The position numbers and the translations under genes are program-made. A DNA stretch of 32,000 nucleotides from Thermodesulfobacteriota bacterium. Lineage in GTDB: Bacteria; Desulfobacterota; WTBG01; JAGOGO01. The notes below the pieces were generated by a model that saw nothing but the letters and a program-made list of their open reading frames with translations, was not told the DNA's origin and made no database searches. The stretch's first letter is position 1; each line of letters opens with the position of its first letter. Of this stretch, positions 1 to 16,647 are shown in pieces. The DNA lies in contig CP113000.1 of assembly GCA_026625185.1 (NCBI GenBank), forward strand, positions 1,005,622-1,037,621, written 5' to 3'.

Positions 1-1316
1 CTTCCTTCGGGGCCGCAATAGTCCTCCATTTTCCGGCATTCGGAACATCCTCCCCCCACCTCAGTTACAAAAAATACTGGTTTTTCTCTAATGGCTTTGT
101 TGGAATATTGTGATACCGAATCATAGAGCAAGTTTTTTGACGCTGTCTCCCAAACTCGAGAACGCATGTTTACCACAATACAAAAACAACCCCGTTCTTT
201 ACATTCACTCAGTTCTATATTCAGGAAATTCGCCTCGAAGATGCTTTTAAGCCCCAGTTGCTTTGCCCGGACAAAAGGGTCATCCGCCTCCTTCAGGTTA
301 ATTGGCGCAGTTGCGTCATATTGGGAAAGCGAAGTTTTAAAAGCAGAACTGAGCATCGCGGCGGGGTCGTTTTCCTGCAGTTCCTGCTGAAGGCCTTGGA
401 TGGCGGGTTGCCATTTGTGCTCAGAGACTTCTCCGGCAATTACACCGCCGGTGAATGCTACAGGCAAATAATATACTGAATATAAAATTGCAACCGGCGG
501 GGCTGACAGATTAAGAAATGCACTGAGGTATGGATGGTCATTCACGAATTGAGAAGAACCATCGCGCTTAAAACTCAACTTCTCTAATCCTATTCCCATC
601 CCCATTGCGCTGATAATGTTCCTCCTTTTCCAATTTGGTGAATTCAACTCTTGAGTGCTGGTGGTCGTGTATCCCATGGGGACAAGTTCACCCATCGTCC
701 GGGTGGTTCTTGGTCTGCTAAGTGGTTTCATGATGACCGATGACAGTGAACCGTATTGCCTGAAAGAAGCCCGGGCAATAACTTTGGCTGATTCAGTCTG
801 GTCAATGACCTTTATCTCAGAACACTGATCTACCTGCCGGCTAATCAATCCTCTTGTGGTTTCGCATGCAGTACTTAGGGTTCCGATATAAATAACCTTA
901 TTACCCTGGGGAACTGAAAACCAAAAACTGTCGGGGGTAAAATAATGAGAGTTCTTCAAGGTATCAACTTTCGGGCTGACCTCAAGATAATAGGTGCCCG
1001 GCTCAAGCATAAAATACACCCACCCATCTTTTCGGGCTTCTGCTGAGGGAAAATCGTAAAAATTAAGATTATTCGTTGAAGAATAAAGGTTGTCACAGGT
1101 TGCTATTACCCAGTAAAATCTTCCCGACCCCTCATTTTTTTGAGAATCAATCTTCGCGGAACACCTAAACAAAACCACGGATTTTCTCTTTTCTTGAGTG
1201 ACCTCCTTAACGTTTATACCCAGGTTTGATCCAGGAGTTGCGCAGCCAAAAAGAAACATTAAAAAAGCATTCAAAGTGATAAAAGCAATTGGTCTTAACC
1301 CTGACATTTTTTTCAT
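1..1316 (-). CDS. Putative lipoprotein of unknown function (N-terminal ~438 aa; the ORF runs off the left window edge)
   Basis: Absent from the ORF track because it has no stop in the window. I checked every codon of this minus-strand frame from 1316 down to 3 and found no stop. The N-terminus MKKMSGLRPIAFITLNAFLMFLFGC has a signal peptide plus a lipobox-like LFGC. AGGAG at 1317-1321 (minus) favours the second ATG, at 1307. A sigma-54 promoter lies 64 nt upstream. I recognise no family. Confidence 0.6.
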   Translation of the reverse strand, partial: MKKMSGLRPIAFITLNAFLMFLFGCATPGSNLGINVKEVTQEKRKSVVLFRCSAKIDSQKNEGSGRFYWVIATCDNLYSSTNNLNFYDFPSAEARKDGWVYFMLEPGTYYLEVSPKVDTLKNSHYFTPDSFWFSVPQGNKVIYIGTLSTACETTRGLISRQVDQCSEIKVIDQTESAKVIARASFRQYGSLSSVIMKPLSRPRTTRTMGELVPMGYTTTSTQELNSPNWKRRNIISAMGMGIGLEKLSFKRDGSSQFVNDHPYLSAFLNLSAPPVAILYSVYYLPVAFTGGVIAGEVSEHKWQPAIQGLQQELQENDPAAMLSSAFKTSLSQYDATAPINLKEADDPFVRAKQLGLKSIFEANFLNIELSECKERGCFCIVVNMRSRVWETASKNLLYDSVSQYSNKAIREKPVFFVTEVGGGCSECRKMEDYCGPEG

Positions 1317-1379
1317 CTCCTTTCACTCTCAAAGTTTCGGATAGTTATTTTTAACTTGAGCTACCCAATGATCGAATAA

Positions 1380-1395
1380 AGCAATTGATGTGCCA
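1380..1395 (-). promoter_or_regulatory. sigma-54 (-24/-12) promoter upstream of the lipoprotein gene
   Basis: The minus strand reads TGGCACATCAATTGCT, which fits the consensus TGGCAC-N5-TTGCW at all fixed positions with correct GG/GC spacing. It lies in an intergenic region 64 nt upstream of the ATG at 1316. Confidence 0.8.
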
Positions 1396-1491
1396 GGGCA
1401 CGAAGATGTTGCTAACTTAATGATTTTGAATAAGATTATGACAAAACCCGGATCAGACTTTGAAAAGGAAGGGGGGTTTAAGGTTCATGCA

Positions 1492-1521
1492 ATGCACTAC
1501 ATCTATACAAATTTTGTATAG
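1492..1521 (-). promoter_or_regulatory. Candidate enhancer (UAS) for a sigma-54 activator
   Basis: ATGCA-N7-TATACAAATTTTG (plus strand 1492-1516) lies inside the near-perfect palindrome CTATACAAATTTTGTATAG (1503-1521). It starts 109 bp upstream of the -24 element. The same 18 fixed bases recur 108 bp upstream of the second sigma-54 promoter. Confidence 0.6.
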
Positions 1522-1575
1522 CACTGAGGTGTCTTCTGGAGGGAGTCGTTCGGAATGTTCCGCATGTTCACGGAA

Positions 1576-2343
1576 CTAGAAATCGGAGGCCAGTGACCTG
1601 AGCTTAAGCATGCGGAGAAGCCAGTGGGCTCCAAAGGCAGCAAACAAATGTTTGAGTGTATGACCGCTCAATATTCCACCGAAAGCGTAGAGAAAGCTAT
1701 CAAAATGCTCTGCCAGTTTTGCCGCGAGGTAAGCCAGCAGCACGACATATAAATCTCTGCTTCGGGTGTAGGGTGACTTATAGGTAATAATAATGAACGG
1801 GATGAGCAGCATGGGCAAAAACTGCACCAGCGCGTAGGGTCTCAAATCGCCTGCCCCTGATTGTTCCGACCAATGCCAATAAAGCACGCTGCCACAACCC
1901 AAGACTATCAGGGGCCATAGCATCACCCTGCCTAATTTTTCGTGCAGATGTTCAGTGATAATCACGCTGAAAAACGCCATAAACGAAAGGGCCATGGGCA
2001 GCCGGTCCCAAAACAGGGTACTGGTGTTCGGATTAAGGTGATAATACGCCGAACCTAAACCGATCAAACAAACTCCCAGGAAGAATAACAGGTATGCGCT
2101 ATAGGCAGGGGTATCAAAGCCAACCCATTTTTTCTTAATGCCGGCAATCGTCCCGATAAGACCCACCATAAAAAGCGGAATATTCGAAATCACATTCCAA
2201 AAATTGGGAATTCCAAGCATCACCCGCCGGTCAGCAAAATGATGATACGCCTCGTCCTGGGGAATCGGCTTAACAAAAAACATGGCGGAAAAAGCAACGA
2301 GGCATATAAAAAGAAAAATGAGGAGTTTTATTTTTTGGCTCAT
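1576..2343 (-). CDS. Ceramidase-like (alkaline phytoceramidase family) polytopic membrane protein
   Basis: ORF 1576-2415, trimmed to the internal MSQKIKLL start at 2343. It is multi-TM with motifs I associate with bacterial PF05875-type proteins: AYHHFADRR..GIPNFWNV.SN, GSAYYHL.P, WDRLPM, LRPYALVQFLP and SGHTLKHL. Confidence 0.7.
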   Translation of the reverse strand: MSQKIKLLIFLFICLVAFSAMFFVKPIPQDEAYHHFADRRVMLGIPNFWNVISNIPLFMVGLIGTIAGIKKKWVGFDTPAYSAYLLFFLGVCLIGLGSAYYHLNPNTSTLFWDRLPMALSFMAFFSVIITEHLHEKLGRVMLWPLIVLGCGSVLYWHWSEQSGAGDLRPYALVQFLPMLLIPFIIITYKSPYTRSRDLYVVLLAYLAAKLAEHFDSFLYAFGGILSGHTLKHLFAAFGAHWLLRMLKLRSLASDF

Positions 2344-2437
2344 ATAGATTGCAGTGTTTCTCTTGTTAATAACGCCTATCCCGTTAATCATCATTATATC
2401 TCTTTTTCCCCTCACCTAAAACAAATTTAATTTGTTA

Positions 2438-3211
2438 TCAATCAGTTGTTCTCATAAACTGACCCTGCCTGATAAAGTTGAGAATTTGTTTTCGCACGTC
2501 CCGATGATTCAGGATAAAGGTATGCTGATGATGGACAACGATGAAGTCTTTCATTTCTTCTAACCGGGCGCTTTCTACAGAAACCCTTCCATCATCCGCC
2601 CCGGGAATGGCAGAAGAGAACCAGGGATTCCCCGGGTTATCACCGGCGATGATTCCAATTTCATAGGGTAACGGCTTTAATGTCCAGACAAGCGCCTTTT
2701 TGTCTGTCCCGATCTGCTGTGCCGCCGGACCGGCAATAATCCCGCATAAGCTCTCCGATTCTTCCTTAAACCGGTCCACCAGCCCACTTCCCTTGTTCGG
2801 GTGACCCACCATAACAATTCTTCCGACATTGGCTATTTTTTTATCCTGGAGGTAATAACGCAGCACTATGCCACCCAGCGAATGGGTTACAAAATGAACC
2901 CGGTCATATTTCCGGAGACACTGCTCGATTTCTTTTCCAACATACTTTGTCGAAATGGTCTGGATATTTTTCGTGACGCTTGGATAGCCGATAATGTAAA
3001 CGTCATACCCCGCTGACTTCAAAAATTTCTCTAATGGTTTAAAAAAGTATTTATTGGACCAGAGACCGTGAAGCACAACAATACACTCCTTTTGGCTTGC
3101 GTAAACCGGCGACCACCAAAGCACCATAAAGGCAAAAATGACTACATAGATTAGGCTATTTTTCAAAACATCTCTTCCTTTTTTGTGAATAATGTAACCT
3201 TCTGGTCTCAT
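2438..3211 (-). CDS. Secreted or membrane-anchored alpha/beta hydrolase (lipase/esterase-like)
   Basis: The N-terminus has a hydrophobic anchor. A VVLHG oxyanion-type motif and the nucleophile elbow HSLGG (GxSxG) are present. Length is about 250 aa. Confidence 0.75.
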   Translation of the reverse strand: MRPEGYIIHKKGRDVLKNSLIYVVIFAFMVLWWSPVYASQKECIVVLHGLWSNKYFFKPLEKFLKSAGYDVYIIGYPSVTKNIQTISTKYVGKEIEQCLRKYDRVHFVTHSLGGIVLRYYLQDKKIANVGRIVMVGHPNKGSGLVDRFKEESESLCGIIAGPAAQQIGTDKKALVWTLKPLPYEIGIIAGDNPGNPWFSSAIPGADDGRVSVESARLEEMKDFIVVHHQHTFILNHRDVRKQILNFIRQGQFMRTTD

Positions 3212-3259
3212 AAGTAAATAATATCCCCATTCCCTCTTCCCGAATAATTTCTTCTTTTG

Positions 3260-4630
3260 TTATGCTTTACTAAGCTGAGGCACCAGATCAAAAATTAATT
3301 TTCTCTCTTTTGCTGGGTTCCAGCCTTTTATATTCCAACAAACCGTACGTCCATAGTAAGCAAAATTGATTGCTGCATGGTAAAGTAATGATGCTAATCC
3401 CCGCGGCCGTTGTGCCTGTCTGGTCAGACGCCTCGCAATCCGCCAGGGGCGATAAAATTCGTACGTTACCCAATCATGCCCCGCTTGCAATGCTTCCGCC
3501 GACATGCCCTGTGGCTGGAAGACCACATTATGAAAATCATAATGAGACCAGTTCCGGTCAAAAATCCGGGAGCTCATGGCTTCAAACCGGGGAGTGCCGG
3601 GCAACGGCGTAAAGATAGAAGCCTGAATTAAATCCACCTCCAGATCATCAAGGAGTTGCAAGGTCCGTTTAAATACCGCAGGGCCGTCGCCGTCAAAACC
3701 AAACACAATCCCCGCTTCCACGCCGATACCATGAGAATGCAGGAGGCGAATCGCTTCCCGATATTTTTCCACCCGGTGAAAACCTTTGTTCACTGCCTCC
3801 AGGTTGCCATCCGAAAAGGTTTCTAAGCCGACAAAAAGGCCGATGCAGCCGGCTTTTGCCATGAGGCGGACAAAGTCGGGATCATCCACTATGCCGAGGG
3901 TCGACTGCGTTACCCATTTTTTCCGCAAAGGCACCAGCGCGTTAAATAGATTCCGGGCGTAGTCTCGATCCGCGGTCAGGTTGTCATCAACCAGAATAAA
4001 AAAACGACCGGGAATTTCCGCTATTTCGTTTGCCACCTCTTCCACCAGACGCCGCCGTTGGGTGTGATGGGAAGCAGCCGAAATAGAACAAAAGTCGCAT
4101 TGATTCTCACAGCCCCTGGTCGCCTGCACTGCCTGAATGGTAGCGTAATGCTTTCCCTGAAGGAGGTGACGAGGCGGTCGCTTAAGCCCCCGCAACTGGC
4201 AGGGGTAATCATTCCGGTAAATACCGCGTAACTGTCCAGCTTGCGCATCAGCGATAACCTTTAGCCAGACTCCCTCGGCATCTCCTGACACAACCGCATC
4301 CGCGTAATTAAGCGCTTCTTCCGCGCAGAGAGTCGGATGCATGCCGCCGAGTACAACCGGAATATTCCTTTTGCGAAATTCAGCCGCGATTTCATAAGCC
4401 CGCGGCGCAAGCGCTGTCATGCAGGTGATGCCTACTAAATCAACTTGTGCGTCCCACGGGACCTCTTCAATCTGTTCATCAATAATTTTAATATCCACAT
4501 CAGGCGGGGTTTCCGCGGCTACGGTTAAAAGGCTTAACATTGAGAACCGGAAGGTCTTGCCGTTAAAAATTCTGTTTTTTCCCACCTTCCGCCACCTTCC
4601 ACTTGCAGGAGCAATTAAAAGAACCTTCAT
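3260..4630 (-). CDS. B12-binding-domain radical SAM enzyme (class B), substrate unknown
   Basis: The CxxxCxxC cluster motif is CENQCDFC. The N-terminus is a Rossmann-like B12-binding region (MKVLLIAP...VGITCMT...VVLGGMHPT). AGGAGG sits 6 nt upstream of the second ATG (4630), so the 4636 start is disfavoured. Confidence 0.85.
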   Translation of the reverse strand: MKVLLIAPASGRWRKVGKNRIFNGKTFRFSMLSLLTVAAETPPDVDIKIIDEQIEEVPWDAQVDLVGITCMTALAPRAYEIAAEFRKRNIPVVLGGMHPTLCAEEALNYADAVVSGDAEGVWLKVIADAQAGQLRGIYRNDYPCQLRGLKRPPRHLLQGKHYATIQAVQATRGCENQCDFCSISAASHHTQRRRLVEEVANEIAEIPGRFFILVDDNLTADRDYARNLFNALVPLRKKWVTQSTLGIVDDPDFVRLMAKAGCIGLFVGLETFSDGNLEAVNKGFHRVEKYREAIRLLHSHGIGVEAGIVFGFDGDGPAVFKRTLQLLDDLEVDLIQASIFTPLPGTPRFEAMSSRIFDRNWSHYDFHNVVFQPQGMSAEALQAGHDWVTYEFYRPWRIARRLTRQAQRPRGLASLLYHAAINFAYYGRTVCWNIKGWNPAKERKLIFDLVPQLSKA

Positions 4631-4679
4631 GATCATCCTCCTTTGGTTATATCGTTTTACGTCAGTTACTCACCAAAAG

Positions 4680-4695
4680 AGCAATGACCGTGCCA
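4680..4695 (-). promoter_or_regulatory. sigma-54 (-24/-12) promoter upstream of the radical SAM gene
   Basis: The minus strand reads TGGCACGGTCATTGCT, a full match to TGGCACG-N4-TTGCW. It is intergenic, about 50 nt upstream of the start at 4630. Confidence 0.85.
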
Positions 4696-4790
4696 GACCG
4701 AATAGTTACGCTTAACAATTTGAATATATTATATATTTAATGGCAGGTTAGTCATTGGCAAATAAGCAGCAAAGAGGATATGATCATTTT

Positions 4791-4822
4791 ATGCAGGAAG
4801 GTTATACAAATTTTGCAGGAAG
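4791..4822 (-). promoter_or_regulatory. Candidate enhancer (UAS) for a sigma-54 activator
   Basis: ATGCA-N7-TATACAAATTTTG (4791-4815) is identical in its fixed bases to the element at 1492-1516. It starts 108 bp upstream of the -24 element. It is embedded in two TGCAGGAAG direct repeats (4792-4800 and 4814-4822) that are 22 bp apart. Confidence 0.6.
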
Positions 4823-5047
4823 AAAGCGATGATGTTGTTGAAAAAACCTTTTGTTGACTTTGCCTCTTCAAAGGATTAAAAAATAAATAATTTATCAATT
4901 CCCAGAAAAAAATAATCGCAGTACAATAATGGGGGCCGCGGAGGAAGGAGATTCCATGAGTGACGAGAATAAAATAAGGCCGAATTACTAAGAATAAAGG
5001 TGATGGGCCTTTTTTACTTTAATGTAAAACCATGATACGAGCTTTGC

Positions 5048-6085
5048 ATGGATAAAAAAGAACAGAATAACTCCCAGTTAGTTTTATATCAGACCGAAGA
5101 CGGCAAGGCACGCATAGAAGTGCGCTTACAGGATGAGACAGTATGGCTCACTCAAAAGATGATGGCTGATCTATTTCAGGTTGCGGTGCCTACTATCAAT
5201 GAGCATATAAAAAATATTTTGGCCGAAGGGGAACTGGTGTCCAAGGCAACTATTAGGAAATTCCTAATAGTTCAAAAAGAAGGCTCTCGGGAGGTATCGC
5301 GTAACGTTGATTTTTTCAACCTCGAAATGATCGTGGCAGTTGGATTTCGTGTCCGGTCACAAAGAGGAACACAGTTTCGTAAATGGGCGATAGATCGTCT
5401 TAATGAGTATATGGTTAAAGGTTTTATCATGGATGACGAACGCCTGAAAGCGGGCATTAATATAGGATCGGATTATTTTGATGAGATGCTGGAACGCATT
5501 CGGGACATCCGTTCCAGCGAGAAGCGGTTTTACCAGAAGATTCGCGATATTTATAAGCTTGCTGTTGATTATGATCCACAAGCGGAAGAAACGCTGGAAT
5601 TTTTTAGTATTGTAAAAAATAAGCTTCATTTCGCTATTTCAGGCAAAACAGCGGCTGAATTGATCTCAGAGCGTGCTGACGCCGCTAAACCCAATATGGG
5701 GCTGAGTTCATGGAGAGGGGCTAAGGTGCGCAGAACAGATGTAACGGTTGCCAAGAATTACCTTAATGAAGCGGAAATGGAAGGATTAAATCGCATTGTC
5801 ACGATGTATCTGGATTTCGCGGAAGATCAGGCAAAACGTCACCGCCAGATTTTCATGCGTGATTGGCGGGCGAAGCTGGATGCTTTTTTAAAATTTAACG
5901 ATCGTGAAATCTTGAAAGATCCCGGCAAGGTGAGCAAGGAGATTGCGGATGCGCTGGCTCTGGAACAGTATGAAATCTTTAACCGCAACAGATTAGCGGT
6001 AGAAGCTGAGCAAGAAGCTATTGCCGATGATAAAGAATTGAAACAGATTCAGAGCAAGATTGAAAAGGGGAAGAGAAAGAAATAA
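5048..6085 (+). CDS. rhuM: RhuM-family protein (virulence/defence-island-associated, DNA-binding-type N-terminus)
   Basis: 345 aa. The N-terminus (LVLYQTEDGKARIEVRLQDETVWLTQKMMADLFQV...INEHIKNILAEGEL) and the central SEKRFYQKIRDIY and MGLSSW motifs match my recollection of the RhuM family (PF13310). Confidence 0.75.
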   Translation: MDKKEQNNSQLVLYQTEDGKARIEVRLQDETVWLTQKMMADLFQVAVPTINEHIKNILAEGELVSKATIRKFLIVQKEGSREVSRNVDFFNLEMIVAVGFRVRSQRGTQFRKWAIDRLNEYMVKGFIMDDERLKAGINIGSDYFDEMLERIRDIRSSEKRFYQKIRDIYKLAVDYDPQAEETLEFFSIVKNKLHFAISGKTAAELISERADAAKPNMGLSSWRGAKVRRTDVTVAKNYLNEAEMEGLNRIVTMYLDFAEDQAKRHRQIFMRDWRAKLDAFLKFNDREILKDPGKVSKEIADALALEQYEIFNRNRLAVEAEQEAIADDKELKQIQSKIEKGKRKK

Positions 6086-6273
6086 TGATAGGCCTTTTTT
6101 TGTTTTGGGACTCAGCTTAGTTGGCGGCTTCGAACCGGCTTATACAGTCTGTAGAAGACCGAAGCTATCAAAACAACAAAATGGTTTAACATTTTAATAT
6201 TATGTGATATTTATAATTTTTCAAGAAAACACGGAAACGTCTTATACAGAAGGCAACCGTCTTTGTTTGCAGT

Positions 6274-6292
6274 ATTATACAGACTGTATAAT
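6274..6292 (+). promoter_or_regulatory. 19-bp perfect palindrome overlapping a TATAAT box (candidate operator/promoter for cassette 1)
   Basis: ATTATACAGACTGTATAAT has 9-bp arms and a 1-nt centre. TATAAT lies at 6287-6292, and TTGTTT lies 18 nt upstream of it. The palindrome ends 5 nt before the proposed cassette boundary. Confidence 0.4.
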
Positions 6293-6297
6293 CTATG

Positions 6298-7136
6298 TTC
6301 GGTATAAAAAAATGGAAAAAAATACTATACAAACTCTTAAAGGTCATTTGTTGGCAGCACGAGCTCTTAAAGACTCGATGGAGAAGTCGCTTGCGTCAAC
6401 TTCAAAGGATAACGTCTGGAAATATGCTAGTTTCAAATCGTATATGTCAACATACCAGAGCATTGTTGCACAAGTATCGACCATAATAAATATCACTGCG
6501 CCTATTGGTGTCTGGGATTTACAAAAAATTCGTGGTTCTCACGATACAACAACCATACAACAACAGGAATTTTTTGAATCAGTTTATGCAAATCTAAACA
6601 TTCTTATCTCATTCATTGAACATTCTATCGATCTTAAGGGCGACGAAATAAGAAGCCTTTGTGATTTTTTTCAGGCAAATCTTAGAAGAGCCGTCTTTGT
6701 AGAACCAGATAAAGAGAAAGAGATACAAGATGTTGTGGAGCAACTGCTGATCGGAAAAGGCTTTGCAAAAGGGATTGACTATGACCGAGAAACCGGCCGC
6801 GTTAAGGTTTCAATTAAGGAAGTAGTTCCTGATTTTATATTGCCGAGATTGTCAATGGCTATAGAGGTCAAGCTGTCAAAAGACAAATCTAAAAGCAAAT
6901 CTATCGTTGACGAGATCAATGCAGATATTCAAGCATACAGCAAGAAATATTCATCTACACTTTTTATCGTTTATGACCTCGGTTCTATTCAAGATGAATT
7001 TGCTTTCAAACATGGCCTTGAAACCATTGATGGGAATATTAGAATAGTCATCGTTAAACATTGAACAATACCGAACAATCGGTTTAACATGGATTGCAAT
7101 TCCGCTGCGCTGCATTGCAACCAGTGAACCGAAACG
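6298..7136 (+). mobile_element. Integron-type gene cassette 1 (PD-(D/E)XK-like ORF plus attC)
   Basis: The left boundary G|TTCGGT (6297-6303) is the exact reverse complement of ACCGAAC (7070-7076), the R'' of the hairpin site after the ORF. The right boundary is G|TT within GTTAGGC (7136-7142). The ORF starts 14 nt inside the boundary. Confidence 0.55.
6312..7064 (+). CDS. Orphan protein with a helical N-terminal domain and a C-terminal PD-(D/E)XK nuclease-like core
   Basis: I use the ATG at 6312 (MEKNTIQ); the 6204 start in the track reads through the promoter/palindrome region. The C-terminal motif is E(VVEQLL)...VVPDFILPRLSMAIEVKL, that is D-x11-E-x-K, with flanking beta-strand-like segments (STLFIVYDLG, IRIVIVKH). 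I recognise no family. Confidence 0.6.
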   Translation: MEKNTIQTLKGHLLAARALKDSMEKSLASTSKDNVWKYASFKSYMSTYQSIVAQVSTIINITAPIGVWDLQKIRGSHDTTTIQQQEFFESVYANLNILISFIEHSIDLKGDEIRSLCDFFQANLRRAVFVEPDKEKEIQDVVEQLLIGKGFAKGIDYDRETGRVKVSIKEVVPDFILPRLSMAIEVKLSKDKSKSKSIVDEINADIQAYSKKYSSTLFIVYDLGSIQDEFAFKHGLETIDGNIRIVIVKH

Positions 7137-7142
7137 TTAGGC
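7070..7142 (+). other. attC-like recombination site 1
   Basis: R'' is ACCGAAC (7070-7076) and R' is GTTAGGC (7136-7142). Between them is an imperfect hairpin: 7080-7084 pairs with 7127-7131, 7088-7092 with 7121-7126 (one bulge), and 7094-7100 with 7114-7120. Bases are bulged on both arms, and 3- to 4-nt unpaired spacers sit next to the R boxes. The site starts 6 nt after the ORF stop. Confidence 0.55.
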
Positions 7143-8124
7143 CGTGACCGAATCTATTCACACCCATAAGGAGATTTCCCGAAATGGACATTCCACGGAT
7201 TTTCAACATCACCGAAAGTGCTCACCGCATCCATAACCCGTTCACACCCGAAAAGCTCGCCACTCTCGGCGCGGCGCTGCGTCTGGAAACGGGGACCCGA
7301 GTGCTCGACCTCGGCAGCGGTTCGGGGGAGATGCTGTGCACCTGGGCACGCGATTACGGAGTCATCGGCACCGGCATCGACATGAGCCAGTTGTTCACCG
7401 AGCAAGCGAAACTCCGCGCTGAAGAACTCGGAGTCGCCAATCAAGTCAAGTTCATCCATGGCGATGCTACCGGCTACGTCTCGGACGACAGGGCCGGTGT
7501 GGCAGCCTGTATCGGTGCTACATGGATCGCTGGGGGAGTCATCGGCACTATCGGGCTTCTGGCGCAGAGCCTCCGCACCGGAGGGATCATCCTCATCGGC
7601 GAGCCATACTGGCGGCAGTTACCGCCGACGGAAGATGTTGCCAAGGGGTGTCTTGCCAACTCAATCTCCGACTTTCTCATGCTTCCAGAACTTCTCGCGT
7701 CTTTCGGCCACCTTGGCTACGACGTCGTTGAAATGGTTCTGGCTGACCAAGACGGCTGGGACAGATACGAGGCGGCCAAATGGCTCACCATGCGCCGATG
7801 GCTTGAAGCCAATCCCGACGACGAGTTCGCGAAAGATGTTCGAGCCAAACTGACCTCGGAACCCGAGCGCTACGCCGCTTACACGCGTGAATACCTGGGC
7901 TGGGGGGTGTTCGCGCTGATGCCGCGGTGATTCGTTGGCGTATCCGGCGGATCGTCAACGGCTGTGCCACGCAACAGCTGGTGGCTCGCCGAGATGTGAT
8001 TGCGCCTGAATTCATTTCTTATGGTCTAGTTATCCGTGCAATCAACAGAAAGGTCTGTCTCAAGCAGGCCTAACATCAATTCATTCAAGCCGACGCCGCT
8101 TCGCGGCGCGGCTTAATTCAGGCG
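7137..8124 (+). mobile_element. Integron-type gene cassette 2 (SAM-methyltransferase plus aadA-type attC), GC-rich
   Basis: It starts with TTAGGC, and its own attC R'' is GCCTAAC (8068-8074), an exact complement of G+TTAGGC as a circular cassette requires. It ends at the G of GTTCCAG (8124). Its composition is visibly much more GC-rich than cassette 1 and the flanking genome. Confidence 0.7.
7184..7930 (+). CDS. Class I SAM-dependent methyltransferase (small-molecule type; no DNA-methyltransferase motifs)
   Basis: Motif I is VLDLGSGSGEM, followed by an acidic post-I residue (GIDMS) and a Rossmann-fold pattern. AAGGAG lies 9 nt upstream of the ATG. I saw no DPPY/NPPY or PCQ motifs. Confidence 0.85.
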   Translation: MDIPRIFNITESAHRIHNPFTPEKLATLGAALRLETGTRVLDLGSGSGEMLCTWARDYGVIGTGIDMSQLFTEQAKLRAEELGVANQVKFIHGDATGYVSDDRAGVAACIGATWIAGGVIGTIGLLAQSLRTGGIILIGEPYWRQLPPTEDVAKGCLANSISDFLMLPELLASFGHLGYDVVEMVLADQDGWDRYEAAKWLTMRRWLEANPDDEFAKDVRAKLTSEPERYAAYTREYLGWGVFALMPR

Positions 8125-8130
8125 TTCCAG
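8068..8130 (+). other. attC site 2 (aadA-like 59-base element)
   Basis: Sequence: GCCTAAC-ATCAATTCATTC-AAGCCGACGCCGC-TTC-GCGGCGCGGCTT-AATTCAGGC-GTTCCAG. It forms a 12-bp stem (8087-8099 with 8103-8114) with one extrahelical A (8093). The 33-nt core TTCAAGCCGACGCCGCTTCGCGGCGCGGCTTAA matches, from memory, the core of the aadA1 attC of class 1 integrons. Confidence 0.8.
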
Positions 8131-8156
8131 CCAGGCTATCCAAATTCTTTAACACG

Positions 8157-11100
8157 TTAGGCTAAGCTTTGGGCCAGGGCTTTGGCCTGGGAAAAGTCGG
8201 CTTTGCCGCTCCCTAACTTGGGAATGCTCTCAACCTTTATGATGCTATCCGGCAGCATCAAGGGGTCCACCTTGTTTTCGATCAATTTTTGTCGTATGAC
8301 CGCCGGATCGATCTCTCCGGCAAACAGGAGAACGATTTTTTCTCCTTTTTTCGCGTCCGGCAAAGCCACTACCGCAAGCTCCATCTCTTTATTGTCCAGC
8401 GCGCCGGCAACCGCTTCTTCCACCGCGCCCAGACTTATCATCTCACCCCCGATCTTGGCAAACCGGGAATAGCGGTCAAGAATGGTAAGAAAGCCGTCGT
8501 CGTCAAGCTGTCCTTTATCTCCGGTCTTGTACCAGCGGATGCCGTCTTTTTCAACAATAACTTCCTGAGTCTTTTTTTCGTTTTTCAGGTAGCCGGCCAT
8601 TATTTGCGGACCGCCGACAAGGATAAGACCCGCCTCACCCGCTGGCAGTTCCTCCAGAGTTGCCGGGTCAACGATTTTAAAGCTTGTGCCGGGAAGGGGT
8701 AATCCCACGGTGCCAATCTTGGTCCCCTGCTGCACGGACCAATCACCGGTCTTGAGCACATCCGGAAGATTGACGCTGGCGACCGGAGTTGTTTCCGTGA
8801 CACCGTAACCTTCGTAAATATCAAGACCGAATTTTGCCTTAAAATCTTCCCGTACCTCGCCGCTTAATTTTTCCGCACCCGCGACAACCAGCCGCAGGGA
8901 TTCAAACATCAGCGGATGAAGCTTCTTGTTTTTGTTATACAGCCGCAAAAAAGTAGAGGTGGAACATAAAATTGTCGCCCGGTGTTCCGCAACCAGCTTG
9001 CCGATTGCGTACGCATTTGTAGGATCTGGGTGGCAAACCACTGGAATACCTTCCACCAGGGGAAGAAAAGAGGTTACCGTCAGACCGAATGAGTGAAAAA
9101 GCGGCAGCACACTTAACAGAACATCGCTTTCTTGGAAATTTAAAACACTGGCAACCTGCTTGATGTTGCCCACAATGTTGCGGTGAGTCAGCTGAACCCC
9201 TTTGGGCAGGCCTTCACTCCCACTGCTAAACACGATAGCCGCGACATCATCGAGCGATGTTTTTTTGGAATACAACAACTTTAAAAGAAACGCCGGCAAC
9301 AGTTTAACCAGGAACGCGGTTCGAATAAGCGAGATCTTGCCAAACTGCTCTCTGAGCTCTTCGAGGAAAACCACTTTTTTATCAGCCAGAAATTCTGAAG
9401 CCGGAAACCCTTTGTTGTTCAAAGTGGTCACAAAACGTTTCGAGGTGAGAATGGTCTTTATTTCCGCCTGTTCAACCGCCTGCATAAGACTTGCCTGCGA
9501 GGCGGTGTAGTTCAGGTTCACCACGGTCTTGCCCAGCATTAATACCGACAGGTTGGCAATTATACCGCCCGAGCTGGTAGGAAGGAGCAAGCCCACATTG
9601 TGTTCCTGTCTTAATTTCTTTTTCAACGCCTGAGCAAAAACTATCGCCGCCGTTAAAAGCCGGTGGGAAGAAAAAGACGTGCCGTCAAAATCAATCAACC
9701 ATTTTTCGTTTTTAATCTTTTTTGCGGTCTTGAGCCATTGAATGGGGATAGTGCTCAAGGCATCAGAATACTGCAGCCAGGAATGGATTGATAACCCCAG
9801 AACCGCTTTTTTCACTTCCGCTGCCGTTGCGTCTCTGGAAAGGGGTTTGCCGAAACACACCGACACATCGCGGGTTCTCTTAAGCCGGGACATCTCCCGG
9901 TGCTTGGGGGTGGCAAAAGAATAAAGGCTTCCCCACAATCCGCGAAGGTAAAAGGGAATAATAACGGCCGCGGCATTTTTTATTGCCAGTTCAAATCCGC
10001 GATGAAACACCCCAACCTGCCCATTGCGGCTCAGCGCCCCTTCGGGGAAAAGGACTACCACCTCACCCTGATTGAGAAGCTTTTCAATAACATCGATAGC
10101 CTCCCTGCTCGCACTGGAGGAAATCGGAACAACCCCAAAGAAATCCAAAAATTTCTTTAAGAACCACTTTTCATAATATCCTCGATACATCACAAACCGA
10201 ACCCGACGGGGGCAGGCCATTTGAACAATGGCCCAGTCCAGATAGCTGGTGTGATTGCCGAGCATGAGTACTCCACCAGAAGAAGGGATGTTATTCATAC
10301 CTATGACCTGAAGCTTATAGTGTTGCGAAACTAATGTAGCAATCACATAGCGAATAAACGACTGCGGCAATTTAATGAAGGTGTAAACCGCTCCGCAAAA
10401 AGCGATGATAAATAATCCTTTAAAGATATAAACGCTGCCTATTCCCTTAAGGGCAGTGCCGATCGCAAGAACCAGGAAGAAGAGCATAACCGCGTTCTGG
10501 AGAAAATTATTCCCCGCCAGCACCTTGCCCAGCTCTTCGCCCTTCGCGTTAAACTGGATGAGGGAATTCAAGGGCACAATAAACATTCCCCCCGCAATTC
10601 CGTAAAGGAAAAACAGGAGCGCGAACCAGGCAATGCTGGTGGTTGAGGGAAGGAGAAAAAGCAAAACCGTGATTCCGATCGCGCTCGCCGGGATCATCCC
10701 GGTCTCAATGTAGTTTTTGGACACCTTGCCCGCGAGCAGCGAGCCGACAATGACTCCGATACCGGCTATGGCCATCAAGCCCTGCGCGATGACTGTATTG
10801 GTGACATCTGCCGTCTCCTTCAAATACGCTCCAAAGGCCGCGAACACCACCTGGTTAATCCCCCAAAAAATCGCCAGCCCGATAATGCTGAGCCAGATCA
10901 CCTCGTTTCCCTTGATCGCCCGAAGGTTTTCTTTCAAATAGTTTCCGGTCACATATTGTTTCCTATCAAAGGCGAGCTCCCTTTTTGTTTCGGTCTTTTG
11001 CGGAAGCGTGAACGCCCACAGGGCTTCGATGGCGGTTCCCACAATAATCAGATATCCCAGCGGAGCAATGGAAGTGAGAATGTCGCTTAAGGTGCGAAAA

Positions 11101-11606
11101 TCCGGGTTATAAATTTTTTCAAAAAGGATGGAGTAAATAAAAACCCCCAGCAAAATAGCCGCGATGCTCACCGCCTGCACAAAAGCGTTGCCAATGGCGA
11201 TGTTTTCTTTTCCGGCCAGTTCCTTGATGTACCCGTACTTGGCCGGAGATAAAAAAGCGGCCTGTATGGCCAGTATAAAAATGAGAATAAAAGAAGTCTT
11301 AAACCAGCCCGCATAAAAACTGACGGTAATAAAAATAGCCAGAACAAAAGCGGACACCGCCGAAACCTTAATCACTTTGTCCTTGGGATACTTATCGGAA
11401 AGATACCCGGCCGGGGTAAACAGCATGACAAAAGGCAAAAGGATCAGGGCGTTCACTACTGCGGTAAGAATGATCTGGGTTGGGCCGGAGAAATATTTAA
11501 ACACCGTGTTTTGGATAATGATTTTATGCCCCAGTTCATTAAAGGCATTCAAAAACACGATCAGGAGATAGGGAAGGAAACCTCTGATTTTTAAAACCTC
11601 AAACAT
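8157..11606 (-). CDS. aas: Triple fusion: MFS lysophospholipid transporter (LplT-like), PlsC-type acyltransferase and acyl-ACP/AMP-forming synthetase (Aas-like)
   Basis: 1149 aa. The N-terminal ~410 aa are polytopic and MFS-like. The acyltransferase HX4D motif is NHTSYLD. The adenylation motifs are SSGSEGLPKG, GYGVTETT and YKTGDKG. This corresponds to E. coli LplT and Aas joined in one polypeptide. Confidence 0.85.
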   Translation of the reverse strand: MFEVLKIRGFLPYLLIVFLNAFNELGHKIIIQNTVFKYFSGPTQIILTAVVNALILLPFVMLFTPAGYLSDKYPKDKVIKVSAVSAFVLAIFITVSFYAGWFKTSFILIFILAIQAAFLSPAKYGYIKELAGKENIAIGNAFVQAVSIAAILLGVFIYSILFEKIYNPDFRTLSDILTSIAPLGYLIIVGTAIEALWAFTLPQKTETKRELAFDRKQYVTGNYLKENLRAIKGNEVIWLSIIGLAIFWGINQVVFAAFGAYLKETADVTNTVIAQGLMAIAGIGVIVGSLLAGKVSKNYIETGMIPASAIGITVLLFLLPSTTSIAWFALLFFLYGIAGGMFIVPLNSLIQFNAKGEELGKVLAGNNFLQNAVMLFFLVLAIGTALKGIGSVYIFKGLFIIAFCGAVYTFIKLPQSFIRYVIATLVSQHYKLQVIGMNNIPSSGGVLMLGNHTSYLDWAIVQMACPRRVRFVMYRGYYEKWFLKKFLDFFGVVPISSSASREAIDVIEKLLNQGEVVVLFPEGALSRNGQVGVFHRGFELAIKNAAAVIIPFYLRGLWGSLYSFATPKHREMSRLKRTRDVSVCFGKPLSRDATAAEVKKAVLGLSIHSWLQYSDALSTIPIQWLKTAKKIKNEKWLIDFDGTSFSSHRLLTAAIVFAQALKKKLRQEHNVGLLLPTSSGGIIANLSVLMLGKTVVNLNYTASQASLMQAVEQAEIKTILTSKRFVTTLNNKGFPASEFLADKKVVFLEELREQFGKISLIRTAFLVKLLPAFLLKLLYSKKTSLDDVAAIVFSSGSEGLPKGVQLTHRNIVGNIKQVASVLNFQESDVLLSVLPLFHSFGLTVTSFLPLVEGIPVVCHPDPTNAYAIGKLVAEHRATILCSTSTFLRLYNKNKKLHPLMFESLRLVVAGAEKLSGEVREDFKAKFGLDIYEGYGVTETTPVASVNLPDVLKTGDWSVQQGTKIGTVGLPLPGTSFKIVDPATLEELPAGEAGLILVGGPQIMAGYLKNEKKTQEVIVEKDGIRWYKTGDKGQLDDDGFLTILDRYSRFAKIGGEMISLGAVEEAVAGALDNKEMELAVVALPDAKKGEKIVLLFAGEIDPAVIRQKLIENKVDPLMLPDSIIKVESIPKLGSGKADFSQAKALAQSLA

Positions 11607-11823
11607 TTTTTATTCCTTTTAACTGGATAAATAATTTATCCTCTTTAAATTCCAAAAACTATGCCGGCTCTGGTGATATTTATAACTATCTGATTCGTCT
11701 AATATAAATATTTTTGTCTTTTATTTCAATCAATGCTACACTTGACGGGTATCCAAATATTGTATCGCTTGTAAACATTTATTGTAAACAACTTTAAGAC
11801 AAATATTTTGAGGATCGGGAAAA

Positions 11824-13320
11824 ATGACAACTAAAAAGGGCTTAAGCCAAAAAGAGCGTGAATTTTTCGCCTTGGTCACTCAGGCTATTTCTGCCAACCC
11901 CTTTAGTGATGAAAGGATAGAGATTGACTTAAGGCTTAGTGGATTATCTCCTGGAGTTTCGCGCACCGAGCGGATAGCAAAACTGGCTGAAGAGTTAAAT
12001 GCTCGGATAAAGCTTCTGGAAAAGGAAGGCGTGGTTCATCTTGACCATTTTTCTCCTGAAGATCGAAAGTTGGCGGAGAATATTTTTCTTTTTGCTTTCT
12101 ATCTCCAGTTGATTGATAAATTTGATATCCACATCCAGGAACAGATTAAGGCGGGAGATACCCCCTTAAAAGTCCCTTTCGCTCAAGAGGCTCTCACTTT
12201 TTTATTGGCCAAGGGTTTCAGCACTGAGGTTGCTTTGCGGTATTTTGCCTTGGGCTATCAGGTCAGGAGAGCCTACTTTTTTATTGACCACAGCCTGGTG
12301 GGTCGAAGCCCCATCATGAAAGAGCTTCGTAAAAATTTATGGAATAATGTTTTTACTTATAACCTTTTATTTTATGATCAGCATTTGTGGAACCGGATGG
12401 AGGACTTTTCTACCCTAATTTTAGGGGAAACCGGAGCCGGAAAAGGTAATGCGGCCAAGGCGATCGGCCGTTCGGGTTTTATCCCTTTTAATGAAAAAAA
12501 GCAGTGCTTTGTGGAAAGTTTTACCCAATCATTTCTAGCGATAAATCTTTCCCAGTTTCCTGAGTCCTTAATTGAATCCGAACTCTTCGGACACAAAAGA
12601 GGTGCTTTTACCGGAGCAGTAGAAGACTATAAAGGGGTACTCACCCGTTGCAGCCCTCACGGAGCAATTTTTTTGGATGAGATTGGAGAAATTCCCGCTC
12701 CCGTGCAAATCAAACTCCTCCAGATTCTGCAGGAAAGGGTCTTCACTCCGGTGGGGAGCCACCAAAAAGTCCGCTTCCCGGGCCGGGTTATTGCGGCTAC
12801 CAACCGACCCCTCAAAAAAATTCGGGAGCAGCGGATCTTCCGTGATGACTTTTTCTATCGTCTCTGCTCAGACATTATCAAGGTCCCATCTCTCGTCCAG
12901 CGCCTGGAGGAAGACCCTAAGGAACTCAATGAACTTCTCGCGCATACTGTTGAGCGAATCGTTGGGAAACCTTCACCTGAGCTTACTGGTATGGTGCTCG
13001 ATGTAATTGATAAAAAGTTGGGAAAACACTATACCTGGCCAGGGAATGTACGCGAGCTAGAGCAGTGTGTCCGGCGGGTACTCCTGAAACGTAATTACGA
13101 GGGTGATTACAAAGCAACCACCCCTGATTTATCTTCACAGTTCAGGGACGCGGTTGAGGCTGATAACGTGGATGCTCAGAGTCTGCTTGCACGTTATTGT
13201 TTTCAGCTCTATCAGCGTTATGGAACCTTCGAAGAAGTCGCCCGGCGCGCTAAACTCGACCGCCGCACCGTCAAAAAATACGTAGAGGACTGGAAAACAA
13301 GATGGGGCGAGAGGGCGTAG
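11824..13320 (+). CDS. sigma-54-dependent transcriptional activator (bEBP) with a non-receiver N-terminal domain
   Basis: Motifs of the AAA+ sigma-54 interaction domain: Walker A GETGAGKG, ESELFGHKRGAFTGA (GAFTGA loop), Walker B IFLDEIG, FRDDFFYRL and WPGNVRELE. A C-terminal Fis-type HTH is present (FEEVARRAKLDRRTVKKY). The first ~190 aa are not a CheY-like receiver. Confidence 0.9.
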   Translation: MTTKKGLSQKEREFFALVTQAISANPFSDERIEIDLRLSGLSPGVSRTERIAKLAEELNARIKLLEKEGVVHLDHFSPEDRKLAENIFLFAFYLQLIDKFDIHIQEQIKAGDTPLKVPFAQEALTFLLAKGFSTEVALRYFALGYQVRRAYFFIDHSLVGRSPIMKELRKNLWNNVFTYNLLFYDQHLWNRMEDFSTLILGETGAGKGNAAKAIGRSGFIPFNEKKQCFVESFTQSFLAINLSQFPESLIESELFGHKRGAFTGAVEDYKGVLTRCSPHGAIFLDEIGEIPAPVQIKLLQILQERVFTPVGSHQKVRFPGRVIAATNRPLKKIREQRIFRDDFFYRLCSDIIKVPSLVQRLEEDPKELNELLAHTVERIVGKPSPELTGMVLDVIDKKLGKHYTWPGNVRELEQCVRRVLLKRNYEGDYKATTPDLSSQFRDAVEADNVDAQSLLARYCFQLYQRYGTFEEVARRAKLDRRTVKKYVEDWKTRWGERA

Positions 13321-13408
13321 GGGGGAAAACAATTTATTTGTCTGAAAGCAATTAAAAAAGATTCGCCATTATATTGAAAATTAGCAGCACCAAAAAGTTA
13401 CAAATGCC

Positions 13409-13438
13409 TTGACATTTGATGAAGAGGTGTGTTAAAAT
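13409..13438 (+). promoter_or_regulatory. sigma-70-type promoter for dsrD
   Basis: TTGACA (13409-13414), an 18-nt spacer, then TAAAAT (13433-13438). AAGGAGG lies 5 nt upstream of the dsrD ATG. Confidence 0.6.
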
Positions 13439-13485
13439 TTATAAATATTTTTTGGAATATATTTTAATCTCTTAAGGAGGAAAAA

Positions 13486-13719
13486 ATGGCTAATGAAGAA
13501 GTAAAGCAGCGGATTATTGACTTTTTTAAACAGTCCAAAGGCAAGAGCAAGTTTTATTTAAGCGACCTTACCAAAGCCGCGCCTGAACTTTCAAAAAAGG
13601 ATTTAAAAAAGGTTACCACCGAGATGATTGCTGAAGGGACGCTGATGTACTATTCTACGGGAAGCACAACCATGCTCCAGCTCTCAGAAGCAGATGTGGA
13701 TGCAAAATTAAAAGAATAA
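13486..13719 (+). CDS. dsrD: DsrD, the small winged-helix protein of dissimilatory sulfite reduction
   Basis: 77 aa. It aligns by eye with Desulfovibrio DsrD: KQ.I.DFF...KGKSKFYL.D..K..P.....D.KK....M..EG.L.YYSTGSTTM versus ...KSKFYFNDF...YWSSGSTTM. Confidence 0.85.
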   Translation: MANEEVKQRIIDFFKQSKGKSKFYLSDLTKAAPELSKKDLKKVTTEMIAEGTLMYYSTGSTTMLQLSEADVDAKLKE

Positions 13720-13767
13720 CCAACGAATAAATTAACCTCAGCTATCGTGGGAATGAGGGCGAGATCG

Positions 13768-14112
13768 TCAGATTTTTTCTTCCCTCTTTCCCTTATACCA
13801 TAAACAAAATTCTAACATCCCCCGATACCGCTCATCCTCTTCCAGGATACCCCTGCAGATTTCAAAAGCTCCTTGCAAAAAGGCATTGCTCGGGCTAATG
13901 AAATCTTTTTCTTTAAGAAATTGATGCCAAAGGCTTACGAGACGTTCCCGGTCGCCTTCTTTTCCATTTATCCTATCAAACGGTTCCTTGGGTTTCTGGA
14001 AGGGATCCCAATTCTCATATCCCTTTTTAAGAATCCCTTGTTGCCTCTTGGGCGACATCGCCTCGAATATTTCCCGTTTCTTTTGTTCTTCCTCTGGAGA
14101 AAGTGTGGTCAT
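13768..14112 (-). CDS. Hypothetical protein, last gene of the dsrAB-TPR-FKBP transcription unit
   Basis: 114 aa and charged. Its ATG directly abuts the FKBP stop codon (TAA at 14113-14115, ATG at 14110-14112), which suggests translational coupling. I recognise no family. Confidence 0.55.
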   Translation of the reverse strand: MTTLSPEEEQKKREIFEAMSPKRQQGILKKGYENWDPFQKPKEPFDRINGKEGDRERLVSLWHQFLKEKDFISPSNAFLQGAFEICRGILEEDERYRGMLEFCLWYKGKREEKI

Positions 14113-14643
14113 TTATTCTATTCCAAGGTCAGTGGACCATACCTTTTTTTTGGTTGCCGGTTCAAAGTCGCAAGGTTTCACAATTTTTAGTTCTGCTTGA
14201 GTAGCCGGCCTGACTTCAACGACGTTTAGGCAATAGGTCAAGGTCCTCCCCGCAAAAGGGTGATTGTAGTCAAGGATAACGCTACCCAATCCTTTTTCTT
14301 TGACAAAATAGCCGCAGGTTATTTTGTGCTTATCATTTTTTGCCAAAACCCATTTTCCGGATTCGAGAGTTTTTCCCTCTGGAAATTCAGAAAAATTTTT
14401 TTCTTTAACTAAAGATGGGTCATAAAAGCCAAAAGCCTCTTCAGGCGGGATCGTTAGGGTAATTTCATCTCCTTGGTTTAAGCCGATCAGTCGCTTTTCT
14501 AAACCAGGCAATACTTGGTCAAACCCAGAAATAAAATCCATGCATTCTAACCCTTCATTTGGGTCTCCTTTAAGAATTTCCCCAGACTCAAGGCGTACCG
14601 TATATTTTATCCTTACATACGTGCCGATCTCACTGACTTGCAT
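14113..14643 (-). CDS. FKBP-type peptidyl-prolyl cis-trans isomerase, SlyD-like (with an insert-in-flap region)
   Basis: The pattern V.I.Y...L..GE......E....F..G..QVLPGLE..L.GL..GD......PPEEAFG.YD..L, followed by LDYNHPFAGRTL.Y...V..V, is typical of SlyD/FkpA-type FKBP domains. Confidence 0.85.
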   Translation of the reverse strand: MQVSEIGTYVRIKYTVRLESGEILKGDPNEGLECMDFISGFDQVLPGLEKRLIGLNQGDEITLTIPPEEAFGFYDPSLVKEKNFSEFPEGKTLESGKWVLAKNDKHKITCGYFVKEKGLGSVILDYNHPFAGRTLTYCLNVVEVRPATQAELKIVKPCDFEPATKKKVWSTDLGIE

Positions 14644-14671
14644 CTTATCCTTTTTTCAATTCTTGAATTGT

Positions 14672-15307
14672 TTAATCCCTCAGTGCACCTCGGTAAGGAT
14701 CCAATGCTTTTTTCAGTTCCGGATTTACCGGAAAGCCGAGTTTCAGGGCATTATCCAGGTAAAGCAGAGCGGATGAATAGTCACCTTTGCGAAAAAAAGC
14801 GATCGCTAAGTTATGATGAGCCAGACTGAAGTTGGGATCTATTTCAAGGGCTTTCTTGTTTTTCTCGACAGCGGCAGATAGGTCGCCTTGGTGGAGATAG
14901 ACATTCCCGAGGTTTGCATAGGCCTGAGGAAACTCGGGAGCAACCTTAATTGCTTTTTGATATTGGCCGATCGCCTCTTCGTATTTTCCTTGCTGAAAAT
15001 AAGCAAACCCAAGATTCACATAACCGTGAACAAAATCAGAATCATGTTCGAGCGCCTTGAGGTTCTGCTCAATACAGCCCTCAATATTGCCTTTGCGGAA
15101 ATAAATTCCTCCTAAGTTTACATACGCCTCAACCAACCCCGGATTAATCGCTATCGCCTGCTTAAATTCCGATATCGCCTCATCCAACTGTCCCTTGCGG
15201 GCATAGGCAAGACCGAGGTTATAGTGGAGAGGCGCTGAGTCTGGTCGTTCAAACAATTGAGCTTTAAGCTCTAAAAAAATATCTTCTTCCTCTTTCTTAA
15301 TACTCAC
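14672..15307 (-). CDS. Tetratricopeptide-repeat (TPR) protein
   Basis: It has about five tandem 34-aa repeats with the signature W/Y-LG-Y...G....A...Y.KAL...P (for example HYNLGLAYARKGQLDEAISEFKQAIAINP). It uses a GTG start at 15307, with AGGA 8 nt upstream. Confidence 0.85.
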   Translation of the reverse strand: MSIKKEEEDIFLELKAQLFERPDSAPLHYNLGLAYARKGQLDEAISEFKQAIAINPGLVEAYVNLGGIYFRKGNIEGCIEQNLKALEHDSDFVHGYVNLGFAYFQQGKYEEAIGQYQKAIKVAPEFPQAYANLGNVYLHQGDLSAAVEKNKKALEIDPNFSLAHHNLAIAFFRKGDYSSALLYLDNALKLGFPVNPELKKALDPYRGALRD

Positions 15308-15463
15308 CAGCTTAATCCTTTATTTAACTAAAGAACTTTTTTAGGTAAAGTTTATCTAACTAATTTGGAAATTGCAAATTTATTGCGGGAAAAACAAAAA
15401 GCGCGGGAATAACGGTTGGAATTGTAAGCTCCGTTACTGAAATTATATCGATCACATAACCGA

Positions 15464-15510
15464 GAAAAAAAGCGTAAGGAGGGAGAAAATAACATTTCTC
15501 CTTACGCTTT
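15464..15510 (-). terminator. Rho-independent terminator (or attenuator) after dsrB
   Basis: A perfect 11-bp stem pairs AGCGTAAGGAG (15471-15481) with CTCCTTACGCT (15498-15508). On the minus strand it is followed by a T-run (plus-strand A-run 15465-15470). Confidence 0.7.
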
Positions 15511-15530
15511 CAAGTAACTTTTTTTGTATT

Positions 15531-16634: not shown

Positions 16635-16647
16635 TTTTATACCTCCT

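Follow-up and report, generated by a model that had tools for sequence, protein, structure and literature searches.

What can a single gene of 250 codons, carried on a mobile cassette and flanked by no constant companion, do for the bacteria that keep it? The question is raised by a 32,000-nucleotide (nt) stretch of contig CP113000.1 of a Thermodesulfobacteriota bacterium (positions 1,005,622 to 1,037,621; hereafter the window), in which the original prediction, made from the letters of the DNA, had singled out an open reading frame (ORF) on the + strand at 6312..7064 as a compact candidate defence gene. We found that this target ORF encodes a stand-alone two-domain protein, with a helical N-terminal domain followed by a PD-(D/E)XK nuclease module of Pfam family PF18742, and that it lies in an integron-type cassette. 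Our analysis supports it as a candidate for defence: we put at about 0.5 the probability that it would be a self-contained, autoinhibited deoxyribonuclease (DNase) acting in defence and activated by infection, and a defence role of any kind, including that of a constitutive Type IV-like restriction enzyme, seems to us considerably more probable.

Judged by its pattern of substitutions, the target gene is real and under purifying selection, since the differences from relatives with 76% and 82% protein identity fell mainly at third codon positions (51/29/138 and 38/12/89 at codon positions 1/2/3, respectively). It runs from the ATG at 6312, as originally proposed, through 250 codons to the TGA at 7062-7064. 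The public annotation starts instead at a GTG at 6204 and gives a product of 286 amino acids (aa; P0001), and this call is too long, because the 108 nt that it adds are filled by the recombination site (attC) of the preceding cassette and because the homologues all start at the ATG equivalent to 6312. The G+C content (GC) of the gene is 36-37%, compared with roughly 41-53% in adjoining genes.

The nuclease module occupies residues 107-250 (6630..7061, + strand). Pfam PF18742 (REase_DpnII-MboI) matched the C-terminal part of the protein with 45.7 bits against a curated cut-off of 27 (E = 6.7e-12) and was matched by all of the 34 aligned homologues, and three PADLOC Aga_Helical-REase profiles (in whose name we read 'Aga' as 'Argonaute-associated', following PMC10620215 and PMC13535254) matched residues 134-248 (E = 1.2e-10, 5.2e-10, and 4.5e-5); scans of the protein against NCBIfam and PHROGs gave no match. 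The PD-(D/E)XK layout originally proposed for this half of the protein was borne out, with every quoted motif in place (VVEQLL at 141-146, VVPDF at 171-175, AIEVK at 183-187, FIVYDLG at 218-224, and IRIVIVKH at 243-250) and D174 and E185 spaced by 11 residues. E143 (codon 6738..6740, + strand, in the VVEQLL helix), D174 (codon 6831..6833, + strand, in PDF), E185, and K187 (within the EVK codons 6864..6872, + strand) were invariant in the 34 homologues (at least 52% identity), together with P173, F175, D200, E201, N203, D205, Y221, and D222. When the PDB sequences were searched with the family profile, EcbAgaN, the nuclease of a long-B Argonaute defence system (PMC10620215), was a weak match (chain 23wq, E = 0.56), in which D174 and E185-V186-K187 align with the catalytic D298 and with E309-V310-K311; an ESAT-6-like match from the same type of search was set aside as chance. 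E143, D174, E185, and K187 are thus the predicted catalytic core of what would be a metal-dependent DNase module. The labels 'orphan' and 'undescribed family' did not survive, as the module is PF18742, the one found in the EcbAgaN group (bAgaN), and the protein has about 950 full-length relatives at 90% clustering.

The AlphaFold2 (AF2) model of the full protein, built with the 34 homologues, reached a predicted local distance difference test score (pLDDT) of 89.8, with helices at residues 3-29, 41-56, 81-105, and 108-127 followed by an alpha/beta core; the nuclease-only model had a pLDDT of 87 and a predicted template modelling score (pTM) of 0.84. In both models (pLDDT 87-90) helices flank a mixed sheet. 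The full model was compared by Foldseek with the PDB and BFVD, and the nuclease-only model with the PDB. The structurally sensible matches, all with E>0.001, were to Can2, XPF/Hef/Mus81, PspGI, EcoO109I, BbvCI, and phage models named 'PD-(D/E)XK nuclease', and matches to glycosyltransferases were judged spurious. A near-invariant segment of the module, GRVKVSI (residues 163-169; 6798-6818), was the sole stretch with a pLDDT below 50 in both models, and may be a hairpin that becomes ordered only upon DNA binding or oligomerisation.

Residues 1-106 (6312..6629, + strand), which carry the first three of these helices, appear from profile comparisons to be a helical domain unique to this family: they matched no Pfam, NCBIfam, PADLOC, or PHROG family, in agreement with the early description of a helical N-terminal half with no recognisable motif, and a profile search with this N-domain alone returned no protein of another architecture, its matches being short pieces from the same family. 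Weak matches to DUF5969, DUF6946, and SduA_N were either below threshold or mapped to the nuclease module, and were rejected as identities of the N-domain. Mean pairwise identity was 40% in the N-domain versus 66% in the nuclease module. ORFs of 107-185 aa that consist of the N-domain only (P0392, P0396, and others) were seen on contigs of up to 13 kb, and may be either pieces of genes that have been disrupted or N-domain proteins that stand by themselves.

The boundary between the two parts is marked by module reuse. A profile-profile alignment with a 319-aa relative, in which an AbiTii domain precedes the common nuclease module, placed the shared unit at residues 107-250 (41% identity over 138 aligned residues, probability 99.8). 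The closest relatives of the module (E<=1e-30) have it at the C-terminus, in AbiTii, TPR, LRR-Roc-COR, and Metallophos-SMEK-TIR proteins; the TPR protein has 630 aa, the two LRR-Roc-COR GTPases 863 and 932 aa, and the Metallophos-SMEK-TIR protein 919 aa. Since its close relatives sit at the C-terminus of such varied larger proteins, the module behaves as an interchangeable effector.

The gene is the second of three cassettes in an array located between a radical-SAM gene and an aas-like gene. As there was no integrase or tyrosine recombinase among the ORFs of the window, the array is classed as a cluster of attC sites lacking integron integrases (CALIN). A simple attC heuristic run over the window found three sites only, clustered and arranged head to tail on the + strand: attC-1 (175 nt, 6129..6303; R'' TTCGAAC, R' GTTCGGT at 6297-6303), which ends the preceding rhuM cassette and whose bottom strand folds into one long imperfect hairpin (z = -3.0); attC-2 (73 nt, 7070..7142; R'' ACCGAAC at 7070-7076, R' GTTAGGC at 7136-7142), which belongs to the target cassette and whose bottom strand folds into a bulged hairpin (z = -2.1); and attC-3 (63 nt, 8068..8130; R'' GCCTAAC at 8068-8074), which belongs to a methyltransferase cassette. 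With crossovers at G6297/T6298 and G7136/T7137, the target cassette measures 839 bp (6298..7136, + strand), of which 14 nt precede the ATG, itself placed 8 nt after the upstream R' box, and 5 nt separate the stop codon from R'', leaving no room for a second gene.

The R'' box of the target cassette is the exact reverse complement of the upstream R' box (7/7), with a non-canonical fourth base that co-varies between the two, and the R'' of the methyltransferase cassette likewise complements the GTTAGGC at 7136-7142 (7/7); the chance of each match is about 1/256 with AAC and GTT fixed. Complementarity between an R'' and the upstream R' is the relation expected when integration splits a cassette's own attC. 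Moreover, when the DNA was aligned with related cassettes (L055/56, with 76% protein identity, and L057-59, with 82%), similarity began at the R' box upstream of the ATG and ended in the attC, and the flanking genes were unrelated on both sides. Given these common boundaries amid unrelated flanks, the 839-bp unit has moved as a cassette, and the integron-type cassette originally proposed was thus confirmed by its attC sites, its R''/R' pairing, and its relatives. Its description as promoterless also held, as the interval from rhuM to the ATG contained no promoter-like site on the + strand and no terminator, nor did a Shine-Dalgarno sequence precede the gene.

The family is large and its distribution patchy. 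In a 90%-clustered database 954 proteins matched at E<=1e-3; among the 120 of these 954 matches listed, all carry PF18742, and nearly all are 226-262 residues in length, with 87-100% coverage of the query. When 50% clusters were searched exhaustively with a profile, 758 of them matched at E<=1e-3, of which 117 reached E<=1e-30, and a scan of one genome per species gave 54 loci. Together with the named database matches, these loci place the family in at least 13 phyla, including Campylobacterota, Pseudomonadota, Chloroflexota, Actinomycetota, Bacteroidota, Acidobacteriota, Gemmatimonadota, Thermotogota, Bacillota, and Saccharibacteria; some members bear the NCBI name 'PD-(D/E)XK nuclease domain-containing protein'. 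Tblastn searches of phage and plasmid collections found no relative of the target.

Elsewhere the family recurs in integrons without being specific to them: attC sites or an IntI-like recombinase were present at about 8 of the 54 loci, and 4-6 others lay inside type I restriction-modification (R-M) operons. Three homologues were found inside attC-like arrays, with 8 sites in a Vicinamibacterales contig (L020, span 1-11160) and 12 and 13 sites in two Gemmatimonadales contigs (L017, span 1-16723, and L036, span 1-16654); at the head of the last array is a fragment resembling IntI, with 65% identity to IntI1 residues 242-328. These three arrays look like sedentary chromosomal integrons in soil phyla. 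Weaker recombinase matches were present near L005, L008, L022, and L037. In L032, L034, L038, and L049 the gene is inserted tightly between hsdM and hsdS, and in L014 and L011 type I genes lie within four genes of the homologue. Other defence or mobile neighbours included a KAP NTPase, an AbiEii-like AAA_21 protein, GmrSD, Mrr, a Pycsar-type TIR protein, rhuM, ABC-3C CTD1, Gp49, transposases, and a relaxase. When the +/-1 and +/-2 neighbours of the 54 loci were clustered by BLAST and scanned with Pfam and PADLOC, no family appeared in more than four loci, so that the gene has no obligate partner, and no Piwi or Argonaute family was present among these neighbours or among the window ORFs.

How such a protein might act is suggested by EcbAgaN, a dimeric, Mn2+-dependent, non-specific DNase whose D-EVK motif is essential and which breaks down genomic DNA in the course of abortive infection (PMC10620215). 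Taken by itself the C-terminal domain of EcbAgaN is toxic, and the dimer stays autoinhibited through the N-domain until Argonaute assembles an octamer (PMC13535254). From EcbAgaN and from the fusion partners of the module we infer that the target is a DNase which its N-domain autoinhibits and infection activates, and that it has a defence phenotype. In favour of this reading we also count the absence of a shared partner gene, the mobile and defence-type settings (integron cassettes, the hsdM-hsdS insertions, and the defence genes nearby), the patchy spread of the family, and the lower conservation of the N-domain. The N-domain would keep the nuclease inactive and serve as its regulatory or sensing part; invasion by a phage or plasmid would relieve the block, probably with a changed oligomeric state; and the released module would degrade DNA non-specifically, stopping the invader either directly or by killing the cell. 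The broader proposal that the family is an as yet unnamed single-protein anti-phage system, in which a private helical domain of about 100 residues senses infection and gates a bAgaN-type DNase, and whose small size lets it travel, over at least 13 phyla, in integron cassettes as well as in type I R-M operons, is more tentative, and we hold it at somewhat less than even odds.

Several observations weigh against the autoinhibited-DNase proposal. Outside the family no relative of the N-domain could be detected, and its role as a sensor or inhibitor is thus assigned purely by analogy. No Foldseek match of either model fell below E = 0.001, and as the structure searches gave weak matches the fold assignment rests on the sequence profiles. 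The family, a member of PF18742, is absent as a system from PADLOC v2.0.0, in which no whole-protein system model matches the target and only the domain-level Aga_Helical-REase profiles do, and the literature searched held no experiment on it. Because the cassette has neither promoter nor Shine-Dalgarno sequence and the array has neither integrase nor Pc promoter, expression in the present host is uncertain. Many neighbours of the family loci are housekeeping genes, and the defence genes named above are raw occurrences in the 54 loci. Finally, copies split into two ORFs or truncated occur in several genomes (L042, L044, L051, L052, L035, L040, L047, and L049, including Desulfobacterium sp. N47). 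Such copies may be a sign that a costly gene is turning into a pseudogene, or may stem from faulty assembly of metagenome-derived genomes.

Several of the same observations can be read differently. A single gene with an accessory N-terminal domain and, at the C-terminus, a domain of restriction endonuclease fold, in a Pfam family named after DpnII/MboI, with GmrSD, Mrr, and type I R-M genes among its neighbours and, as expected of a Type IV enzyme, no conserved cognate methyltransferase, might be a solitary restriction endonuclease needing no activation (Type IV, or sequence- or structure-specific), in which the N-domain reads foreign DNA and the PD-(D/E)XK domain cuts it. We consider this unlikely: none of the known modification readers or DNA-binding families was matched by the all-helical N-domain of about 100 aa; bAgaN, which among characterised proteins is nearest to the module, is a regulated and non-specific DNase; and the module is mostly an effector fused to sensor or NTPase domains. 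A poorer prospect is that of a selfish or addiction toxin, or of a retaliation device linked to R-M, in which, by a logic like that of PrrC, a host factor (a type I R-M complex, for instance) would keep a latent nuclease silent and its loss or inhibition would set the nuclease free; such a device would also stabilise the cassette arrays that carry it. The four tight hsdM-X-hsdS insertions, the presence of type I genes within four genes in about six loci, the toxicity of the isolated bAgaN nuclease domain, and the cost suggested by the split and truncated copies would all fit this idea; however, most loci, like the window itself, have no type I R-M genes nearby, the cassette leaves no space for an antitoxin, and an Rfam scan of 4500-8300 found no credible RNA in or beside it.

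Two further explanations fare much worse. The XPF/Mus81/Hef nuclease domains among the weak Foldseek matches might point to a housekeeping nuclease of DNA repair or recombination that chanced into a cassette, but the present data already argue against it, given the patchy distribution, the mobile locations and lack of conserved synteny, the carriage in an integron cassette with a foreign GC, and the lack of any NCBIfam match, and we regard it as very improbable. The methyltransferase gene at 7184-7930, which starts 120 nt downstream on the same strand, would make the target the nuclease half of a Type II R-M pair. This reading is refuted for practical purposes: an attC site separates the two genes, which are thus independent cassettes; the methyltransferase matches class I families dependent on S-adenosylmethionine (SAM) that act on small molecules, and not DNA methylases; the genes downstream of the related cassettes are unrelated to it, so that it is not a conserved neighbour; and its GC is 60% compared with 37% for the nuclease, with 81-82% identity to alphaproteobacterial genes.

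This methyltransferase gene (7184..7930, + strand), of the class I SAM-dependent type, occupies the following, independent cassette (7137-8130), whose DNA was 81-82% identical to genes of the same class on Azospirillum and Methylocystis replicons. Its attC-3 showed 87-91% identity to an attC known from class 1 integrons of at least 5000 plasmids, where it comes after aadB or aac(6')-IIa; in one example a site of this kind lies between aadB and blaOXA-10, downstream of intI1. Through this cassette and its attC, the chromosome of a sulfate reducer is linked to the cassette pool of pathogens. A second GTTAGGC lies at 8156-8162, across the stop codon of the aas-like gene, which runs convergently (8157-11606, - strand), and is also an exact complement of the R'' GCCTAAC at 8068-8074. 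We rejected it as the R' of attC-3, as the comparison with the aadB attC puts the crossover at G8124/T8125; it may be left over from an earlier cassette junction or site of insertion, or may have arisen by chance.

The preceding cassette carries a gene of the rhuM family (5048..6085, + strand), the defence-associated neighbour named originally, which was verified by matches to PF13310 (E = 4e-114) and to the PADLOC candidate PDC-S05 (E = 1e-148). The attC-like site that follows it is, at 175 nt, unusually long. A search for an empty site did not locate the 5' boundary of this cassette: the sole close relative, contig L062, ends at window position 4991. A strain whose radical-SAM neighbour is 94% identical is collinear through 4637-4991. 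Just upstream of rhuM, and conserved in the same contig L062, lies a mini-ORF of 12 codons (4956-4991; MSDENKIRPNY) whose Shine-Dalgarno sequence (GGAGGAAGGAGA) is strong and behind which come a GGCC hairpin and a T-run. The other genes of the window are chromosomal and include dsrAB, selB, ftsK, and nrfA, as in a sulfate-reducer-like genome.

Among known systems, the target is closest to bAgaN (also BPAN), of which EcbAgaN is the characterised case. In both, a helical N-domain precedes a PD-(D/E)XK module at the C-terminus, with D...EVK at identical spacing. However, the target has 250 aa compared with 370-400 aa in bAgaN, the profiles align only from target residue 134 (profile positions 261-373 of 378), and the Argonaute-engaging N-terminal domain of bAgaN, of about 220-260 aa, has no homologous counterpart in the target. 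As the N-domains are not detectably homologous and no Argonaute gene lies nearby, the target is not a bAgaN, and its activator must differ from that of bAgaN. The fusions of PF18742 to AbiTii, TIR-SMEK, ROCO, and TPR domains have the same C-terminal nuclease module, which in the target is preceded by a short private domain only, and by no recognisable NTPase, repeat, or Abi domain. Shedu (SduA, DUF4263), to which the spacing of the catalytic motifs had originally been likened, is similarly a single-gene defence protein in which a regulatory N-terminal part comes before a PD-(D/E)XK nuclease at the C-terminus. The target is much shorter, and the resemblance did not hold: there was no DUF4263 or PADLOC Shedu match at E<=1, and SduA_N matched only 3 of the 34 members, at E>=0.027. 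Lacking a profile match, the target is not a Shedu protein. Can2/Card1, accessory nucleases of type III CRISPR systems, gave the best structurally sensible Foldseek matches (TM-score 0.44-0.47 over 112-134 columns, E>0.1), and Can2 also belongs to the structures reported as closest to EcbAgaN (PMC10620215); the target nevertheless has no CARF domain and no sequence-level relationship with them.

Finally, the locus resembles the phage-resistance integron cassettes (BRiCs, and the defence cassettes of sedentary chromosomal integrons), being a compact, promoterless, single-ORF unit with its own attC in an array, next to another defence-candidate cassette (rhuM). It differs from them in that its array has no integrase, in that its defence role is a predicted one, and in that its host is an environmental anaerobe and not a Vibrio or an enterobacterium; the literature examined on such cassettes does not name the target family. 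If the protein protects against phages, it would be among the smallest sensor-plus-nuclease defence proteins known, and would show a short private domain in control of a module for which an Argonaute, NTPase, or Abi partner is normally required. The locus also widens the picture of integron-borne defence from Vibrio and clinical integrons to environmental anaerobes and soil phyla. Since integron cassettes are already established as carriers of compact defence genes (Kieffer et al. and Darracq et al., Science 2025; Getz et al., Nat Microbiol), the target is a good candidate of a known kind rather than a new category: a clean and experimentally tractable unit of 839 bp, well supported as a candidate, and no new principle.

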